IMG/VR virus record: IMGVR_UViG_3300042007_000202
Span: 44,672 to 108,671 of that record
DNA length: 64,000 nt
Reading direction: 5' to 3' (one strand)
Origin: a virus
A model generated the notes under the pieces. The model did no database searches. It had not been told where the DNA came from and saw only the letters and a list, made by a program, of their open reading frames with translations. Position 1 is the stretch's first letter. Every line of letters begins with the position of its first letter. Shown here piece after piece: positions 36,968 through 63,926 of this stretch. A program made the position numbers and the translations under genes.

Positions 36968-38311
36968 CTAGTCGATCGGGGGGAAGGTGTGCACGCCGTC
37001 CTTGGGGGCGAGGGGGTTGGGGATGATGAACTTCTCGGGGTCGTAGCTGACGCTCCGGACTTCCTTCCCGAGGCAGGTGTTGTTCCACGCCTGCATGATC
37101 AAGTACATGTCCAGGTCGCGCTTGGAGCGGCCCTTGAGCGGCTGTCGGCGCCGGGTGGAGGAGCCCAGGTAGTACAGGCCCAGGGTGTGTCCGGGCTCGC
37201 CGCGCTTGAGGTCCATGGTCTGGACGCGCTTGTACCAGGACGTCACCAGGCGGTGGTCGCCGCCCATCTTCCGGGTGATCAGGTAGTGGGCCAGCATGGT
37301 GGCCTGGGTGCTGATGGACAGCTTGCCGAGGACGCCGTGCTTCACGGAGACCCGCAGGTTGGGGTGGGCTTCCAGGGTGGCGAACACCTGGGCTTCGGTG
37401 ACCTTGGGCGCGTGGCGCCACTGGTCCTGGTCGTCGTAGTTGAACCAGAGGAACGCGAAGGTGGCGAGGGATGCGAGGCGGCTCGTGTTGACTTCCTGCG
37501 CGCCGTAGAGCATGTCGGCCGTGGTGCGCTTCTTGCCCCGGTCCATGACGTCGTAGGTGTCGGGCGGGGTGTCGTAGGAGACCCAGCAGGGGAACGGGAC
37601 CTCGGACTCCACGCACGCGTGAAGGCGGTGCTGCCCGTTGGCCGTCATGTTGTTGGTGTCGATGCACACCGGGTCGGCCGGGTTCAGCTTCCACTCCCCG
37701 CGCCGCATCGCCTCCGCGTAGTCGCGGACCTTCTTGTCGTCCAGCCGCCGCTGGTAGGGGGCCAGCCGCGTGAGCAGCTCCAGGGCGCGTTCGGGGTGGA
37801 TCAGCTCGGCCTGCATACGGCCCGCGTTCTCCAGGAGCTGCACGGGCGCGTCATCCAGGAGGGAGGGCCCGGCGGGCTGGGCGGCGGGGGCTTGCACCCT
37901 GGCGGAGCCGTTGACGGAGCCGCCCTTGCCGTGGCGCTTGCGCTGGTGCTGGCGCCTGTCGGGGCTGGGGTCCTCGGGGGTGTCGGTGTTGATGCCCCAG
38001 TACGCCAGGAGGAACCGGTGCTGCTGCTCGGCGGGGTCCGTCTCCTCGATGCGGCACTGGCGGCCGATCTTCTCCAGCTCCTCGTAGAGGGCCTGCGTCC
38101 AGCCGAGCTTGTTCTTGGCGCGGGTCAGGTCGTTCTGGTACTGGCGTTCCGCGGAGTTCGCGCTGACGGTGATCGTCGCTTCGGGCACGCCGTATTCCGG
38201 GACGGCCAGGCGGATCAGCTTGTACCGGCCGCGCTCCTGCGGCTCCATGGCGTAGCCCGGCGTCTGGCCGACGAAGCGGATGAATGCCAGTGCGTGTGCG
38301 TTCTTGCTCAT
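36968..38311 (-). CDS. Protein with a ParB/Srx-like domain
   Basis: IHPERALELL...QRRL...V..YA..M..G.W...NGQHRL.A. Confidence 0.65.
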   Translation of the reverse strand: MSKNAHALAFIRFVGQTPGYAMEPQERGRYKLIRLAVPEYGVPEATITVSANSAERQYQNDLTRAKNKLGWTQALYEELEKIGRQCRIEETDPAEQQHRFLLAYWGINTDTPEDPSPDRRQHQRKRHGKGGSVNGSARVQAPAAQPAGPSLLDDAPVQLLENAGRMQAELIHPERALELLTRLAPYQRRLDDKKVRDYAEAMRRGEWKLNPADPVCIDTNNMTANGQHRLHACVESEVPFPCWVSYDTPPDTYDVMDRGKKRTTADMLYGAQEVNTSRLASLATFAFLWFNYDDQDQWRHAPKVTEAQVFATLEAHPNLRVSVKHGVLGKLSISTQATMLAHYLITRKMGGDHRLVTSWYKRVQTMDLKRGEPGHTLGLYYLGSSTRRRQPLKGRSKRDLDMYLIMQAWNNTCLGKEVRSVSYDPEKFIIPNPLAPKDGVHTFPPID

Positions 38312-38790
38312 ACGTGTGCCCCCTGGGCGGGCAGTAGGTGCTCGCCGTCTTCTGTGATGCGGGTGAGGTGCGGTACGCGGGCGGGCGGGCGGCCGGTCAG
38401 GGCCTTGACGCTTGCGGTGTAGGTGCTGATGGCGGCGTCAAGGGATCGGTGGGCCAGCAGCTCGACGAAGCCGCGAGAGGCGGTGAGGGTGGTGAGGGTG
38501 GTGCGGGCGAGAGCGACGCGGGGGTGGCCGTGGGCGTCGCAGTGCCACAGCTCGTGCGTCAGCCCGGCGGGCGGCGCGCTGTCGGCCCAGCCGTGCCCGC
38601 CCCACAGCAGCGTGCGCCGCTCCGCGTGGAACAGGAGGGCGTCCAGGGCGTGGGCGGGGTGCGCGGGATAGGCGGCCACCAGCCAGTAGTCGATGCCGTC
38701 GCGCCGGTGGACGGAGGGGCGCCCGCGCGTGGCGTGCGTCCCTCCGTCCGGCGGCGCGGGCCGTGCGGCGTAGATGTGCAGGTCGCTCAT
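38308..38790 (-). CDS. Hypothetical protein
   Basis: ATGA coupling. Confidence 0.5.
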   Translation of the reverse strand: MSDLHIYAARPAPPDGGTHATRGRPSVHRRDGIDYWLVAAYPAHPAHALDALLFHAERRTLLWGGHGWADSAPPAGLTHELWHCDAHGHPRVALARTTLTTLTASRGFVELLAHRSLDAAISTYTASVKALTGRPPARVPHLTRITEDGEHLLPAQGAHV

Positions 38791-50717: not shown

Positions 50718-50854
50718 ATGCGCAGCCGCCCCCGCCGTGCCGCTCACGCGACGCACGGCGCCCCCAGGGCCGTGAACCCCGGGGGCCACTGCAAATCTCA
50801 TGTCACCCGGCCGGGGGGGGGCCCGGGGGGGCGCCCCCCCCGGGGGGGGCACGG

Positions 50855-51079
50855 TCAGGCGTCGCCGTCTTCGTCCGTGACGCCCTGCGCCTCCGCCCAC
50901 TCGCAGCACGCCTTGGCGAAGAGCGCGGGGCCCTGCGCCGCCTGCTCGGAGCGGAACACCTCCGGCGCCGCGCCCAGGGTCTCCACGACCACCACGCCGC
51001 CGGGCAGCAGGTAGAAGTCGGTGTCGCTGAACGCCTCGGTGTGGAAGACGTCGACGCTGATCTGCGAGTAGCGGTCCAT
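50855..51079 (-). CDS. Small acidic cassette gene
   Basis: GAGGAG RBS, conserved leader hairpin, half cassette at 51124-51141. Confidence 0.6.
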   Translation of the reverse strand: MDRYSQISVDVFHTEAFSDTDFYLLPGGVVVVETLGAAPEVFRSEQAAQGPALFAKACCEWAEAQGVTDEDGDA

Positions 51080-51188
51080 GGTGATCTCCTCGTCCGTGGT
51101 GGGGGGCTCCGCGCCCCCGAAGAATGCGAATCTCGTGTCACCCGGCCGGGCGGGCGGCCGGGGGGCCGCCCGCCCGGGGGTCAGGGGG

Positions 51189-51725
51189 TCAGTGCTTGCA
51201 CCCGGCGGCGCACCAGCCGCCCGCCTTGCGGACGGCGCGCTCGTCCACCAGTCGGGCCACCGTGTACGCGGTGCCCGTGTTCACGCAGATCAGGGCGTAC
51301 TGACCGTCGCGGCGCCCGACCTGCGCCGCCTGGCGCGGCTTGTCGTACAGCAGCTCCCAGCCCTTGGCGGCCGACTCGCCCAGGCCCGCCCGGCGCGCGG
51401 CCTTGCGCGGCGCCTTGCGGGGGGCGGCCTCCACGCGGGCGGCCGTCTTGGCGGCCAGCGCGGCCAGCGCGGCGGCCACGCCGGTCAGGGCCTCCGCGCG
51501 CTCCTCGGCCGCGAGAACGGCCTCCACCTCGGCCTGGTCGGCCACCGGCAGCGCCTCGGCCACGGCGGTGTGGCTCACCCGGCCGGTCGCCTGAGTGGTG
51601 ACCAGGACCACCAGGCCCGTGGCGGCGGCGCGGCGGTCGGCCTCGCGCTTGGCGGCGGCCAGGTTGGCGTAGGACTTGGCGGCGAACTCGGCGGCGGCGG
51701 AGACGGTGTAGCGGGTGGCGGCCAT
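51189..51725 (-). CDS. WELLYDKP-domain protein A
   Basis: AAGGAG RBS; Ala-rich N-terminus plus the conserved C-terminal domain. Confidence 0.8.
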   Translation of the reverse strand: MAATRYTVSAAAEFAAKSYANLAAAKREADRRAAATGLVVLVTTQATGRVSHTAVAEALPVADQAEVEAVLAAEERAEALTGVAAALAALAAKTAARVEAAPRKAPRKAARRAGLGESAAKGWELLYDKPRQAAQVGRRDGQYALICVNTGTAYTVARLVDERAVRKAGGWCAAGCKH

Positions 51726-51774
51726 GGTGGGCTCCTTCGGGTGGGAGGTGGTGGGGGGCCGTTTGCCCTCCGGT

Positions 51775-51840
51775 GTGACACCAGTATTGCATACGCCACT
51801 CAGGGAATGCAAATCTCGTGTCTCATCAATCCACGGGGAT
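51775..51840 (-). promoter_or_regulatory. Promoter cassette plus 12-bp palindrome
   Basis: GTGACAC...GTGTCTC (50 bp), 4 bp, ATCCACGGGGAT. Confidence 0.75.
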
Positions 51841-51928
51841 AGGCGGAGCGGGGGGCGCGGACAGGAGCCGTGAGTGCCGGTGGCCCCGCGCGAACTCCTC
51901 AGGCGGGAACTCAGGGGCCCCCGCACAG

Positions 51929-51970
51929 CCGAATGCCCCCGCCCGGCCGGAGCCGGGCGGGGGCATTCGG
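51929..51970 (-). terminator. Hairpin after protein B
   Basis: CCGAATGCCCCCGCCCGGC/GCCGGGCGGGGGCATTCGG. Confidence 0.7.
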
Positions 51971-51974
51971 GAGG

Positions 51975-52469
51975 TCAGTGCTTGCAGTCGGGGCACCAGC
52001 CACCGGCGCTCCGGGCGGCGCGCTCATCCGTCAGGCGGGACAGGCGGTGGACCGTCAGGTGCTCGACGCAGATCAGGGCGTACTGGCCGTCGCGGCGGCC
52101 GACCTGGCACCCCTGGCGCGGCTTGTCGTACAGCAGCTCCCAGCCGGAGCCGACGACCGTCTCGCCCTGAGCGGCGCGGAGCTGGCGGGGGGCGGTCTTC
52201 GTCTCAGCGGCGGCCTCGGCCTCGGCCTGCGCCTCAGCGGCGGCGGCGCAGTGCTTGCAGAGCTTCTTGCCTCCGACCGCGACCGCCAGCTTGCGGGCCT
52301 CCTCCAGCACCCCGGCCGCCGTGGTGGCCTTGGCCCCCCGCTCCACGAAGCGGTACGAGCGGGACAGAGCCGGGCAGGCGCTCTTGGCGTAGTCGAACTC
52401 GCTGCCCTCGGTGCGGATGTTCAGGCCGTCGATGTGGACCGTGCCGCTGTTGTACTTGATGGTGAACAT
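51975..52469 (-). CDS. WELLYDKP-domain protein B
   Basis: AGGAG RBS; N-terminal H..C..CKHC plus the conserved C-terminal domain. Confidence 0.8.
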   Translation of the reverse strand: MFTIKYNSGTVHIDGLNIRTEGSEFDYAKSACPALSRSYRFVERGAKATTAAGVLEEARKLAVAVGGKKLCKHCAAAAEAQAEAEAAAETKTAPRQLRAAQGETVVGSGWELLYDKPRQGCQVGRRDGQYALICVEHLTVHRLSRLTDERAARSAGGWCPDCKH

Positions 52470-52515
52470 CCGGTGCTCCTGAGTTCGTCGGTGGTGGGGG
52501 GCCCTTGCCCCCCGT

Positions 52516-52565
52516 GTGACACCAGTATTGCATACATCGCTCACGGAGTGCAAATGTCGTGTCAC
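52516..52565 (-). promoter_or_regulatory. Promoter cassette
   Basis: GTGACAC...GTGTCAC 50 bp. Confidence 0.75.
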
Positions 52566-52606
52566 CCGGCCGGGCGGGCGGGTGGCCGCCCGCCCGGCCG
52601 GTCCGC

Positions 52607-52996
52607 TCAGTAGCGGCGCGGGGGGCGGACCCTGGCGGCGCCGCTGGCCCGGCGCGCGGCTCGCCGGGCGCGGGCCTCCTCCAGTTCCCTGGCCTGGAAG
52701 GCGCGGCCCGCCTCGATCACCCCGGCGGGCGCCTTGACGATCTCGCCGCCGTTCCGGCCGACCTCCGCCAGGGCGCTCAGCGCGCTCCAGTGGCCGCTCC
52801 GGCGGCCGTAGCGGTCGACGGTGACGATGGGCGCCACTCCCGCGCCCCTGCTGGCGAGGAGTTCCCGGTAGAGCTCCGAGCCCTGCTCGCAGTAGCGGCC
52901 GGTCTCCCCGGAGGTGGAGCAGACCCGGCAGGCGGCGGCGTGCTCGCGGTGGGCGACCTCGGCGGGGTTGAGGACCTCGTGGGTGTTGGCGGCCAT
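52607..52996 (-). CDS. Cassette gene (H..C..C..C motif, no WELLYDKP domain)
   Basis: AAGGAG RBS; HAAACRVC...YC. Confidence 0.65.
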   Translation of the reverse strand: MAANTHEVLNPAEVAHREHAAACRVCSTSGETGRYCEQGSELYRELLASRGAGVAPIVTVDRYGRRSGHWSALSALAEVGRNGGEIVKAPAGVIEAGRAFQARELEEARARRAARRASGAARVRPPRRY

Positions 52997-53038
52997 CGCG
53001 GGCTCCTTGGGGTGGTGGGGGGCCGCTTGCCCCCCGGT

Positions 53039-53104
53039 GTGACACCAGTATTGCATACGCCGTTCAAGCAATGCAAATCTCGTGTCTCATCAATCCACGG
53101 GGAT
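53039..53104 (-). promoter_or_regulatory. Promoter cassette plus 12-bp palindrome
   Basis: Near-identical to the 51775 cassette. Confidence 0.75.
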
Positions 53105-53254
53105 GCAGACGCCCGCGCCCCCGGCGGGCGGAACCATGAGTGCGGCCGGTCCGCGTGAACTCCTCACGCGGATGCTCAGCGACCCAAGCGACCGACTTCC
53201 CGACATGGCTCTGCCGCCGCCCGGCCGGGCGGCGGCAGAGCGCGCGGTGAGGGC

Positions 53255-53734
53255 TCAGCCCTCGCTGTGGGCGCAGCCCTCGCACCAGGCCGCCTTGCCC
53301 GCCCGGCGCAGCTCGCGCTCATCGACCAGCTTCTCCAGCGGCCGGGCGTACTTGTGCTCGGTGCAGATCAGCGCGTAGCTCTTGTCGCGGCGCCCGACCT
53401 GGGTGGCCGTGCGCGGCTTGTCGTACAGCAGCTCCCAGCCGGTCACGGCCGACTGGCCGTCCGTCAGGCGCCGCGCCCGGTCGGTGTTCATGATCCGCTC
53501 CCGGTCCGCCTCGGCCGCCTCCTGGGCGGCGTCGAAGACCTCCTGGAGGGCCGCGCACGCCTTGCAGATGGTGTTCGCCTGGAGCTGGCGGACGACCGGC
53601 GCCAGCGTGAACTCCGCGCCGCACAGGTTGCCGGTGCCGACCCAGAGGTGGGTGACCTTGGCGGTGCGGGAGGAGACCGTCAGGGCGGTGTAGGTGGACG
53701 GGGCGATGACGGCGGAAGCGGTCTTGCGGGCCAT
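53255..53734 (-). CDS. WELLYDKP-domain protein D
   Basis: GAGGAG RBS; N-terminal THL..LCG..ICKAC plus the conserved C-terminal domain. Confidence 0.8.
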   Translation of the reverse strand: MARKTASAVIAPSTYTALTVSSRTAKVTHLWVGTGNLCGAEFTLAPVVRQLQANTICKACAALQEVFDAAQEAAEADRERIMNTDRARRLTDGQSAVTGWELLYDKPRTATQVGRRDKSYALICTEHKYARPLEKLVDERELRRAGKAAWCEGCAHSEG

Positions 53735-53782
53735 GGCGGGCTCCTCGGGTCGGAGGGGGTGGGGGGCCGTTTGCCCCCCGGT

Positions 53783-53848
53783 GTGACATCAGTATTGCAT
53801 ACGCCGTTCGGGGAACGCAAATCTCATGTCTCATCAATCTGCGGGGAT
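53783..53848 (-). promoter_or_regulatory. Promoter cassette plus 12-bp palindrome
   Basis: GTGACAT...ATGTCTC, 4 bp, ATCTGCGGGGAT. Confidence 0.75.
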
Positions 53849-53969
53849 TGAACTCGCGGACCTCTGGAGCCGCCCGGCCGGGCGGGCGTCGCTGAGTCGC
53901 CCGTGAGCGGCACCGGGTGCGGGGCTGCGCACTCATCAGTCCTGGGGCGCCCTCCGGTCGCTCAGGGGT

Positions 53970-54018
53970 GAGACACGGGGCATGCGCACACCACCATTGA
54001 TAGATAGCCTGATGTCAC
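53970..54018 (+). promoter_or_regulatory. Promoter cassette (divergent arm)
   Basis: GAGACAC...TAGCCT.ATGTCAC 49 bp. Confidence 0.6.
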
Positions 54019-54041
54019 ATGGCACCGACGAGAGGACCCCC

Positions 54042-54419
54042 ATGAACACGCGCTACCCGCGCGCCGTCGACCTGGCGCAGATCCCCCACTGCTCCGTCTG
54101 CGGCGAGACGAACCCCATCACCGACGAAGAGGGCGGCACCGCATGCTGCGGGCGGCGGGAGTGCGGCGGCGTGGGGCCCGAGGCCCAGGACGTGTGCTGC
54201 CAGGCACTCCAGGACCGCGTGGACCACGAGTCCGCGCACGGAACGCCCGCCTCCCCGCTGTCGGCCGCGCGGCCGGTGGCGGCAGCCCCCCGGCGAGCGC
54301 GAACCCGATCCACGCGGATCAAAGAGACACGAGACTTGCTGACGCTGAGTGACGTATGCAAAAGTGATGTCACACCGGGGGACGGACAGCCCCCCACCAC
54401 CGAGCCGAAGGAGGCCCCG
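54042..54419 (+). CDS. Cys-rich cassette ORF without a stop codon, reading in frame into protein F
   Basis: GAGGA RBS, ATG 54042; CSVC...CC...C...CC. Confidence 0.5.
54308..54373 (+). promoter_or_regulatory. 12-bp palindrome plus promoter cassette
   Basis: ATCCACGCGGAT-4-GAGACAC...ATGTCAC. Confidence 0.7.
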
Positions 54420-55073
54420 ATGGCCCTCTCCACCACCGCCGCCACCAGCGCCGTCTGCCGCAACCTCTTCAAGGACGGCCCGAACTCCTTCGAGCCCGTC
54501 GGCGGAACCTTCGGCACGGACCGCGAGATCTACGAGAGCCTGGCCAAGGCATACCTCAAGGACAAGACCGACCTGAGCGGCAGCACGATCGAGGCCGCCG
54601 ACTGGGACGAGGTGTTCGCCACCTTCCAGCCCGACCCGGCCCCCGCCGCCGAGGCCGCCCCGCAGCTCGCCGCCGGTTCCCGCGTCACCACCACCGGCCA
54701 GCCCGCGCTCACCCCGACCGGTTACGTCGTCTCGGTCCAGTACGACCCCCCGTTCGCCCACCTGGCGGCGTCCGGCGGCGCGGACCACCTCGTCCGCGAC
54801 CTGGCCCCGGCCCCCGCCGAAGCGGCCACCCCGGCCCCGGCCCCGGCGCCCGCCCCCAAGGGCGCCAGGAAGCCCCTGGGGGACGCCAGCGCGCCCGGCT
54901 GGGAGCTGCTGTACGACAAGCCCAAGGCGGGCGCCGAGGTGGGGCGCCGGTACGTGGACGGCAAGCCCCAGTTCTCCCTGATCTGCAAGGCCCACGGTCA
55001 CGTGCACAAGCTGGACCGCCTGAGCGATGAGGGCAAGGTCCGCAAGGCCGGTGGCTGGTGCCCCTCCTGCTGA
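54420..55073 (+). CDS. WELLYDKP-domain protein F
   Basis: AAGGAGG RBS; unique N-terminal domains, PA linker, conserved C-terminal domain. Confidence 0.8.
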   Translation: MALSTTAATSAVCRNLFKDGPNSFEPVGGTFGTDREIYESLAKAYLKDKTDLSGSTIEAADWDEVFATFQPDPAPAAEAAPQLAAGSRVTTTGQPALTPTGYVVSVQYDPPFAHLAASGGADHLVRDLAPAPAEAATPAPAPAPAPKGARKPLGDASAPGWELLYDKPKAGAEVGRRYVDGKPQFSLICKAHGHVHKLDRLSDEGKVRKAGGWCPSC

Positions 55074-55109
55074 ACCCCCGGGCGGCCGGGCGGCCACCCG
55101 CCCGGCCGT

Positions 55110-55159
55110 GTGACACGAGATTTGCATTCGGCTCACGGCTGATGCTAATCTCGTGTCAC
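55110..55159 (+). promoter_or_regulatory. Promoter cassette (most symmetric copy)
   Basis: GTGACACGAGATTTGCA-16-TGCTAATCTCGTGTCAC, a 17-bp inverted repeat with one mismatch. Confidence 0.8.
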
Positions 55160-55202
55160 GCGGGGGCGGCGCCCCCACCACCGGCGAACTCAGGAGCCCG
55201 CG

Positions 55203-55682
55203 ATGGCCGTCATCAAGACCGACCCCCAGACCACCTACGACGGCTACCTGCTCATCGCGGCCACCAACGGCCGGGTCTGGCACCTCAGCAACCACGACGA
55301 CGAAGCCCTGTGCCGCGCGAAGGTCGACCGCTACATCGAACTGGAAGAGGCCGCAGAACTCAGCGGTATCTGCGCCCGCTGCTCCCGCATCCTGGACCGG
55401 CGCGGCCCGTACGTGCCCTACGCGGAGCGTGTGGCCGCCGGGCAGACCGAGCCCACCGGCCCGCGCCCGGCCCTGGGCCCGTCCAGTGTGGACGGCTGGG
55501 AGCTGCTGTACGACAAGCCCAGGGCGGGCTACGAGATCGGCCGCCGCTACTGGGGCGACAAGCCCGAGTACGCCCTGATCTGCAAGGCCCACCGCTACGC
55601 CCTCGGGATCGGGTCGCGGCTCAAGTCCGAGGGCGTGCACCGCCGCGCGGGCAACTGGTGCCCCGGCTGCAACAGCCGCTGA
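55203..55682 (+). CDS. WELLYDKP-domain protein G
   Basis: AGGAG RBS; N-terminal WHL..LC..ICARC plus the conserved C-terminal domain. Confidence 0.8.
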   Translation: MAVIKTDPQTTYDGYLLIAATNGRVWHLSNHDDEALCRAKVDRYIELEEAAELSGICARCSRILDRRGPYVPYAERVAAGQTEPTGPRPALGPSSVDGWELLYDKPRAGYEIGRRYWGDKPEYALICKAHRYALGIGSRLKSEGVHRRAGNWCPGCNSR

Positions 55683-55728
55683 ACTCCCGGCCGGGCGGGC
55701 GGCTGCGCTTCCATCCCCGCGAATTGAT

Positions 55729-55777
55729 GTGACACGAGGTTTGCAAACGGTGAACCGTGGTGCTAATCTGGTGTCAC
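55729..55777 (+). promoter_or_regulatory. Promoter cassette
   Basis: GTGACACgaggtTTGCAA-17-TAATCTgGTGTCAC. Confidence 0.8.
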
Positions 55778-55824
55778 ACCAGGGGGTGCCGCCCCCACCA
55801 CGAACCACCCACAAGGAGCCCGCC

Positions 55825-56175
55825 ATGATGAACTTCCCCGGCTACACCCTGCTCGGCACCATCAACCTCACCGACGAGGAGTACGACTCCGAGCGCCAGC
55901 TGTCGGTCTACCGCAACGCGAACGGCGCGGTGTTCACCCTCGACGCGGGCGGCTGCATCTGCTGCTGCGACCTCTACGACGGCGTCACCGTCTCGGACCT
56001 GGTGGAGTTCACCGGCTCTGCGGTGGAGCTGGCGGAGCTGCTGGTGGCGGAGGTCACTGCGATCGGGTGGCCCGTCGACCCCGAGGGCCGCATGGAGGTC
56101 GAGGAGGAGCTGCGGAACATCATGCGCGGCGTGGCGGGCGTGCCCGTGGCGGCGCCGCTGGCGCTCCCGCGCTGA
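55825..56175 (+). CDS. Acidic cassette gene (GCxCC motif)
   Basis: AAGGAG RBS. Confidence 0.65.
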   Translation: MMNFPGYTLLGTINLTDEEYDSERQLSVYRNANGAVFTLDAGGCICCCDLYDGVTVSDLVEFTGSAVELAELLVAEVTAIGWPVDPEGRMEVEEELRNIMRGVAGVPVAAPLALPR

Positions 56176-56210
56176 CCCCACTCCGCCCGGCCGCCCGGCC
56201 GGGCAAACGA

Positions 56211-56239
56211 AAGGCCCGACACTGCTCGTGTCGGGCCTT
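56211..56239. terminator. Hairpin closing the right arm of the array
   Basis: AAGGCCCGACAC/GTGTCGGGCCTT. Confidence 0.7.
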
Positions 56240-56271
56240 CGCTGCTGCTCACCTAACCCTGCGTGACCAGC

Positions 56272-63449: not shown

Positions 63450-63926
63450 TTGAGCGAGAACGCACCCGAGACCCCGCCGCCCGCCGAGGAGGAGACGCCC
63501 GCCAGCCCGCCCGCCGAGGAAGGCGGCGGCACCACCGACACCCCCGGCGACGAGACGCCCGGCGGCGGCGAGGGCGGCGACGAGCCGCCGCCGGTGGTGG
63601 TGCTCCCGCCCCCGCCGGACTACCAGCAGGGCGTGGGCACCATCTACGGCGAACTCACCGACGAGGTGAACGCGGCCCGCTGGTCCACGCAGATGGACAA
63701 CATGGCGAACGCTGTCCGCGTCACCTACGACTACATCCTGCCGATCGCCTACGAACTCGCCGGTCCCGAGGCGCAGAGCCGCGCCATGGCCCGTGACGCG
63801 GTCGCCTCGCTGCTGCTCACGCGGGCCACGGAGGAGGTTCAGGGCGCCCGGGTGGCGGCCGAGCTGGCCGACGCGCCGGAGCCCACCCCGCCGCCCGCGC
63901 CGTCGGAGCCGCCCTCCGAGGGCTGA
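63450..63926 (+). CDS. Acidic Pro-rich hypothetical protein
   Basis: AAGGAGG RBS, TTG start. Confidence 0.55.
   Translation: MSENAPETPPPAEEETPASPPAEEGGGTTDTPGDETPGGGEGGDEPPPVVVLPPPPDYQQGVGTIYGELTDEVNAARWSTQMDNMANAVRVTYDYILPIAYELAGPEAQSRAMARDAVASLLLTRATEEVQGARVAAELADAPEPTPPPAPSEPPSEG

Follow-up and report, generated by a model that had tools for sequence, protein, structure and literature searches.

Nine small genes and a shared C-terminal domain

The window analysed here, the whole 64-kb stretch of DNA examined, comprises bases 44672-108671 and thus the 3' end of the 108,671-bp IMG/VR virus record IMGVR_UViG_3300042007_000202. The record has a GC content of 71%, and the window carries an array of nine small genes, five leftward (I, A, B, C and D) and four rightward (E, F, G and H), that diverge from a point between 53734 and 54042 (~53.9 kb). 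This layout had been proposed in a sequence-only reading of the DNA, made by a model from the letters and their open reading frames (ORFs); coordinates, GC content at third codon positions (GC3) and homologues agree with it. Coding-type GC3 values of 0.92-0.99 supported eight of the nine genes in a codon-position analysis. Gene A was not passed by the codon-position filter, and its coding status is supported by a 71% identical homologue, P0007.

Five of the array genes (A, B, D, F and G) end in the same domain of ~60 amino acids, running from G-W-E-L-L-Y-D-K-P through C-x2-H to W-C-x2-C, as had been described. Over the full 108,671 bp of the genome, seven copies of the peptide G-W-E-L-L-Y-D-K-P were counted, the two additional ones lying in the record's first gene (141-959, 272 amino acids) and in a 450-amino-acid protein (37242-38594). 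Pairwise identity among the seven C-terminal domains was 42-66%, with E-values of 1e-17 to 1e-30. A 26-mer of DNA noted as identical in the five array genes was found in exactly five copies in the window, at those genes, where 100 shuffles gave an expectation of 0. In an alignment of 42 sequences C36 and C63 were invariant, and W12, Y16, P19, R27, H39, W62 and C66 were conserved at 90% or more. The histidine is replaced in copy A, as the sequence-only reading had stated.

Built with the 42-sequence alignment, an AlphaFold model of the domain from copy D (predicted local distance difference test, pLDDT, 88.5) comprised four strands and two helices, of which the terminal one is short. C-x2-H is placed at the turn that joins strand 3 to strand 4, and C-x2-C where the final helix begins, so that four Cys/His ligands would be presented by two knuckles, a hairpin turn and a helix start, as in the layout of a zinc ribbon or treble clef. 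Because the conserved C, H, C and C occupy these two places, the domain is predicted to bind zinc. Its calculated pI was 7.9-9.6 and its net charge +1 to +6, and the N-termini were acidic in five of the seven proteins. Lys-rich tails are added in several homologues (P0035, P0036 and P0044), as read from their sequences.

No match to the domain was obtained in Pfam-A, PHROGs v4, NCBIfam or PADLOC, in any of the seven proteins or their homologues. Searches of 50,697 phage records, a collection that may lack the present record, by blastn with the 6-kb array and by tblastn with the domain found nothing, and the domain profile gave only chance matches to PDB sequences, with no ScoMcrA or McrA chain at E<=10. 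The structural hints were a weak match to a 'zinc-ribbon containing' phage protein in BFVD (E 0.22) and unnamed or 'probable zinc-ribbon' clusters in the ESM Atlas (scores <=0.86); no solved zinc-ribbon chain stood among the best structural matches (best Z 4.9). An RbpA-like zinc core was considered and set aside, no RbpA chain being among the fold matches listed. By sequence and model, the domain is undescribed and lies outside named families, as the sequence-only reading had suspected.

The N-termini of the seven proteins are mutually unrelated, except that A resembles the genome's first gene (E 1e-9). A full-length AlphaFold model of A (pLDDT 93) showed an N-terminal beta-alpha-beta-beta module, termed MAxTRY (~55 amino acids), which is the commonest N-terminal partner of the domain. 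Foldseek (PDB and BFVD) and VIA-align searches with the full-length model returned no convincing match. The best structural neighbour of residues 3-57 was the T4 antitoxin Dmd (5hy3_B; Z 5.8, root-mean-square deviation 2.7, 53 of 57 residues), at a score below the level that was trusted, and as a weak lead the module may be inhibitor-like.

In the 450-amino-acid member (minus strand; L002:743-2095), residues ~50-170 and ~195-325 match PHROGs 4046, 4095, 4265 and 2319, all of unknown function, whose proteins in other phages are without the zinc domain. Its N-terminal ~330 residues carry two C-x2-C-x-G-x-G motifs reminiscent of the zinc-finger region of DnaJ, as well as a stretch that looks barrel-like.

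Coordinates of the array genes, their shared domains and their flanking elements (window positions; cassettes and hairpins are described in the next section)
Feature	Position	Strand	Description
Gene I	50855-51079	-	74 aa; no shared domain; GC3 0.99
Gene I flanks			Half cassette ~51125-51139 and leader hairpin upstream; GC hairpin ~50806-50850 downstream
Gene A	51189-51725	-	178 aa; MAxTRY beta-alpha-beta-beta module, long helix, linker, C-terminal putative zinc domain
Gene A, zinc domain	51192-51392	-	His ligand replaced
Gene A, cassette	51774-51822	-	Arm GACACGAGATTTGCA, ~16 nt, TGC-AATACT-GGTGTCAC arm; then G/C leader hairpin and GGAG
Gene B	51975-52469	-	164 aa; distinct N-terminus ending in C-K-x-C; putative zinc domain 51978-52175
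Gene B flanks			Cassette 52515-52563; terminator hairpin ~51922-51965
Gene C	52607-52996	-	129 aa; no shared domain; cassette 53038-53086; hairpin ~52563-52601
Gene D	53255-53734	-	159 aa; N-terminus with H..C..C-K-x-C; putative zinc domain 53258-53470
Gene D flanks			Cassette 53782-53830; hairpin ~53209-53241
Divergent control region	53735-54041		Cassette of D, 12-bp palindromes, degenerate cassette of E (~53970-54019)
Gene/module E	54042-54419	+	Cys-rich module of ~65 aa and Pro/Ala/Arg linker; no stop codon
Gene F	54420-55073	+	217 aa; two N-terminal modules, Pro/Ala linker; long-loop putative zinc domain 54867-55070
Gene F flanks			Cassette 54326-54374; hairpin ~55079-55108
Gene G	55203-55682	+	159 aa; N-terminus with C..C-x2-C; putative zinc domain 55464-55679
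Gene G flanks			Perfect cassette 55112-55160; no clear terminator
Gene H	55825-56175	+	~116 aa; no shared domain; cassette 55731-55779; weak hairpin ~56185-56204

The repeated cassette, hairpins and the E-F frame

Most of the array genes are preceded by a palindromic cassette of ~49 bp, in which an arm GACACGAGATTTGCA is followed after ~16 nt by a near-mirror arm holding a TGC-TAATCT or AATACT box. Behind it come a G5-loop-C5 leader hairpin, the sequence CACCAC and a GGAG ribosome site at a constant distance from the ATG. The earlier proposal that every gene has its own cassette stood for seven genes (A, B, C, D, F, G and H), where the cassette is full and 90-97 nt separate its first arm from the ATG, and for gene I as a half cassette; that of E is degenerate. 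The cassette also precedes both family members outside the window. All seven domain genes therefore carry it, which groups them into one regulon; the genome as a whole is estimated to hold roughly twenty cassette sites.

The cassette can be read as TTGCAT, a spacer of 17-18 nt and an extended -10 box, and its position and orientation suggest a promoter/operator. Since a generic sigma-70 scan with a strict consensus did not score it as a promoter, this role is one that we infer, and the negative scan counts against the interpretation developed below. Repeated sites of this kind are familiar from other phage regulons, such as the phiC31 early promoters with their inverted repeats and the stoperators of cluster A mycobacteriophages. 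As in those systems, one promoter-like palindrome is repeated before many genes, and co-ordinate control by one regulator is probable; the sequence is unrelated, however, and here each small gene forms a single unit with its own leader and terminator hairpin. The literature was searched for early promoters of Streptomyces phages in connection with zinc proteins, and nothing relevant was found.

Perfect GC-rich hairpins follow A, B, C, D and F, with folding energies of -30 to -52 kcal/mol and z-scores of -3.4 to -5.1 against shuffles. The hairpin after I is of similar energy (-42.5 kcal/mol) but its z-score is only -2.6, that after H is weak (-19.8 kcal/mol, z -2.2), and none was found after G. 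A terminator scan detected no T-tailed terminator, the array hairpins being without U-tracts. A 12-bp palindrome of the ATCYRCGYRGAT type was also observed a few bases upstream of several array cassettes (53837-53848, 54308-54319 and others), for example as GATCCACGCGGATC at 54307-54320.

The count of nine separate genes has to be amended at one place. The frame of E (ORF 53982-55073, plus strand) has no stop codon and continues through its Pro/Ala/Arg linker and the cassette of F into F. The open frame is kept in genomes G001 and G003 and in the database ORFs P0017, P0018, P0023 and P0025 despite differing linker lengths, and in P0010 and P0036 an E-like module is joined directly to the zinc domain. 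As E lacks a stop and is in frame through the cassette, the sequence predicts a long E-F isoform together with a short F expressed from the internal cassette.

Relatives of the domain in phages and bacterial nucleases

A profile search of 1.84 billion representative proteins placed the domain in only 51 clusters. In nearly all of them it stands at the extreme C-terminus of proteins of 74-530 amino acids whose front parts are very different. Copies were most numerous in a 111-kb IMG/VR relative of the phage (G001; median protein identity 71%), which has seven; Streptomyces sp. NPDC051907 has six, contig 11 (106 kb) of Streptomyces andamanensis four, and a distant 52-kb relative (31 of 88 genes shared, 39% identity) one. 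N- and C-terminal modules are reassorted among these relatives with 7, 6, 4 and 1 copies. The 111-kb relative keeps the core of the array in synteny, with A, B and D to one side and E-F to the other; in place of G, H, C and I it has small genes unrelated to them, and it contains the insertion of one further member, in which an E-like module is fused directly to the domain.

The domain falls into a short-loop and a long-loop subtype, the latter represented in the array by F and G and seen with at least six different N-terminal modules. The B-type and MAxTRY-type modules each occur with both subtypes, and these conflicting combinations require recombination. The description of a constant C-terminal module on interchangeable N-termini is accordingly borne out, in this genome and across the 51 clusters; the term polymorphic is not, since by sequence the paralogues are old and most are conserved as orthologues among relatives instead of varying rapidly. 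The array genes gave no match to a toxin or immunity family, and their layout is unlike that of paired toxin and immunity genes: the variable part lies at the N-terminus, and every gene is a solitary unit bounded by a cassette and a hairpin of its own. Integron arrays consist of promoterless cassettes with attC sites beside an integrase and share one common promoter, whereas here each gene has its own cassette and no integrase adjoins the array.

PHROG matches to a major tail protein, major head protein, portal and large terminase identify a tailed phage, and the record was judged 99% complete. Because no isolate among 50,697 deposited phages has a capsid protein more than 37% identical to that of this phage, the lineage is, on this comparison, without a cultured close relative. 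A locus search seeded with the seven-sequence domain alignment found relatives within Streptomyces assemblies, which points to Streptomyces as the host. All five phage-type carriers of the WELLYDKP domain encode a Tet/JBP dioxygenase, and the lineage probably hypermodifies its DNA at thymines. The five form a single lineage, for which reason the co-occurrence of dioxygenase and domain is treated as a lead.

On contig_3 (106,095 bp) of S. andamanensis PCU 347 four domain genes lie in the first 15 kb and the Tet/JBP gene at 42.6 kb (loci L015, L019, L022 and L029-L031). The contig, which is close to the phage genome in size, probably represents a relative in full, present as a prophage, a phage-plasmid or a co-cultured phage.

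The domain was also found in the bacterial chromosome. Seven of 401 Streptomycetaceae genomes contained it, and five of the six single-copy chromosomal matches were proteins of ~230-250 amino acids in which the domain is N-terminal and followed by a linker and an HNH nuclease. The HNH half is ~55% identical to residues 433-557 of ScoMcrA (PDB 5ZMM; E 7.7e-32) and matches the PADLOC type IV restriction model PDLC03662 (E 1e-23 to 1e-32); Pfam recognised HNH in two database members. Another fusion of this kind is the Embleya protein WP_391588607. The nuclease module is confined to these bacterial relatives (P0038, P0052 and L034:6484-7179) and absent from the proteins of the window by Pfam and PADLOC. 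Phage and nuclease branches are about 25-45% identical and have the W/Y/K-P/R core in common. By sequence, the phage domain is homologous to the N-terminal domain of these bacterial ScoMcrA-type HNH nucleases.

N-terminal domains of ScoMcrA and related enzymes are DNA-modification sensors (PMC6224610, PMC7461809, PMC6765204), and as the nuclease half is ScoMcrA-like, the domain occupies the place of a DNA-modification reader. The bacterial proteins share with the ScoMcrA types (SBD-SRA-HNH, SRA-HNH and EVE-HNH) a C-terminal linker and HNH with an N-terminal accessory domain. They differ in that neither SBD, SRA nor the head domain resembles the present domain in sequence (its profile did not match 5ZMM), and the seven phage proteins carry no nuclease. 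Neither Pfam nor the domain profile against PDB sequences revealed a known reader domain (SBD, SRA or EVE/PUA). Zinc ribbons on phage HNH nicking endonucleases contribute to DNA specificity (PMC3592412) and likewise join a small Cys/His module to HNH as an aid to DNA recognition; those ribbons are short and adjoin terminase-linked HNH genes, whereas the present domain has ~60 residues, four strands and a helix and a WELLYDKP core, and in the phage is detached from any nuclease. One fusion gene (L034:6484-7179, minus strand, on contig C146 of genome G056) lies directly after dndE of a dndA/B/C/D/E cluster and is followed by a second DndB-like gene.

What the domain may bind

The interpretation that we prefer, with modest confidence, is that the domain is a DNA-binding or reader module which tethers variable modules to DNA within one regulon. 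DNA binding is suggested by the position of the domain in the nucleases, by its positive charge and by the Lys-rich tails of some homologues. The ~60-residue zinc-binding sheet-and-helix domain would bind nucleic acid, most likely double-stranded DNA, and act as a common tether by which each of the seven proteins would deliver its own N-terminal part to one type of DNA target. The cargo would comprise the MAxTRY module with its coiled-coil helix, Cys-rich fingers, a strongly acidic region, and a large region with zinc-finger and barrel-like parts. Transcribed from the same palindromic promoter/operator cassette, the seven proteins would be made together, probably early. A part in host takeover or anti-defence, as the sequence-only reading proposed, would be speculative. 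Nucleoid proteins of the Lsr2/H-NS type, found in actinobacteria and phages, consist of an oligomerisation domain, a linker and a small DNA-binding domain. The commonest architecture of the present family is comparable, with a small N-terminal module (a long helix in A), a Pro/Ala/Arg linker and a basic C-terminal domain; no sequence or fold match was found, however, and the family differs in its predicted zinc site and in its many unrelated N-termini.

Several results, beside the negative promoter scan, weigh against this interpretation. With the domain model, no Foldseek match in PDB or BFVD reached E<=0.001, and the best of 48,161 chains in a VIA-align comparison scored Z 4.9, which is not convincing as a fold match. 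The DNA-binding folds of the WGR, AP2 and integrase arm-binding types scored Z 3.3-3.7, in the range of noise (PARP1 7s68, 3.7; 2eoc, 3.5; 2cr9, 3.4; 3jtz, 3.4; 6sy0, 3.3). The domain is nearly neutral in two of the paralogues. DndE was not found in the other four fusion-bearing genomes, so that the dnd link holds in one of five, and the neighbourhoods of the fusion genes in those genomes share no theme and are uninformative. Fusion to a nuclease gives the position of the domain and not its ligand, and a regulatory or dimerisation role there could account for it; the DNA-binding role itself is a matter of inference.

We consider it rather unlikely that the domain docks instead onto a single protein hub of host or phage, for example RNA polymerase, a protease or a chaperone, with the N-termini as delivered effectors. 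A constant small module on many unrelated N-termini is also typical of adaptor families, no nucleic-acid-binding fold was recognised, and the N-terminal module of A weakly resembles Dmd, a protein-binding inhibitor. Yet a domain with the same core heads solitary ScoMcrA-type HNH nucleases, in which the equivalent position is that of a DNA sensor; chromosomal nucleases would hardly be expected to have a docking site specific to phages, and the domain is basic. As phage and nuclease branches alike retain the W/Y/K-P/R core, a common ligand is likelier than a phage-specific partner. The original suggestion of docking to nucleic acid or to a host complex is in this way narrowed by the HNH fusions towards nucleic acid, the host complex being less favoured. 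That the domain has no common ligand, and is only a zinc-stapled folding or oligomerisation unit duplicated along with its genes, would fit a small Cys/His domain without a recognisable fold relative. We regard this as very improbable, since the surface-type residues W12, Y16, K-P and R27 are conserved across distant branches and unrelated architectures, which suggests a conserved binding function. Should the domain bind DNA, it would add a small, new fold to those that bind or read DNA, could serve as a probe or be built into fusions like the sulfur-binding and SRA domains of ScoMcrA, and would explain a set of unannotated Streptomyces HNH nucleases. For phage biology, the family offers a testable case of a co-regulated multi-gene family built from one targeting module on many front ends.

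A more specific proposal, which we think unlikely as a whole, is that the domain reads modified DNA (hypermodified thymine or phosphorothioate), that Streptomyces type IV-like HNH nucleases use it on foreign DNA, and that the Tet/JBP phages expanded it to seven co-expressed paralogues which tether modules to, or shield, their own modified genome. Distinctly unlikely, in our judgement, is the related idea of a reader and its decoys, in which host nucleases find modified DNA by means of the domain and the seven phage copies mark, organise or shield the phage's own DNA. In its favour, the nucleases fused to the domain belong to the ScoMcrA type, which depends on modification, one fusion lies within a phosphorothioation (dnd) cluster, and Tet/JBP dioxygenases accompany the domain in all phage-type carriers. 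Set against this, those five carriers are one lineage and their co-occurrence is not independent, the dnd link is seen in a single genome, the sequence data do not demonstrate specificity for modified DNA, and the distance between phage and nuclease branches speaks against recent capture.

The possibility that the array is a recombination-driven diversity system, with cassettes and 26-mer as functional sites for a nearby RecT/exonuclease pair, we consider hardly plausible. RecT-like and Cas4-like exonuclease genes were indeed located near the array, as the sequence-only reading had stated. N- and C-terminal modules are reassorted among relatives, the array of the present genome (G000) is not the same in content as that of its 111-kb relative (G001), the differences lying at C, G, H and I, and the eight codons of the 26-mer are identical in six of seven copies, for which codon usage alone gives P=0.154 per copy. 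The 26-mer is nevertheless a weak candidate for a crossover site or recombination anchor, the role suggested for it earlier, because the seven copies in the 111-kb relative show five synonymous variants of the tract and at least one recent module swap, the F-type swap in P0006 as read from the sequences, begins in the Pro/Ala linker upstream of it; identity of the tract is, by this analysis, largely the product of an invariant peptide and codon bias. A, B, D and E-F moreover keep their order and orthology between genomes at about 71% protein identity, which fits ordinary homologous recombination between repeats and not a dedicated system. Further neighbours of the array include winged helix-turn-helix (wHTH)/GntR regulators.

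Orthologues of the record's first gene (1-959) and last gene (window 63450-63926) adjoin in the 111-kb relative (G001, 93790-95174), so the ends of the record are arbitrary or permuted. The first gene, itself a family member, thus adjoins the genes at the right end of the window, ~6 kb past the RecT/exonuclease block.

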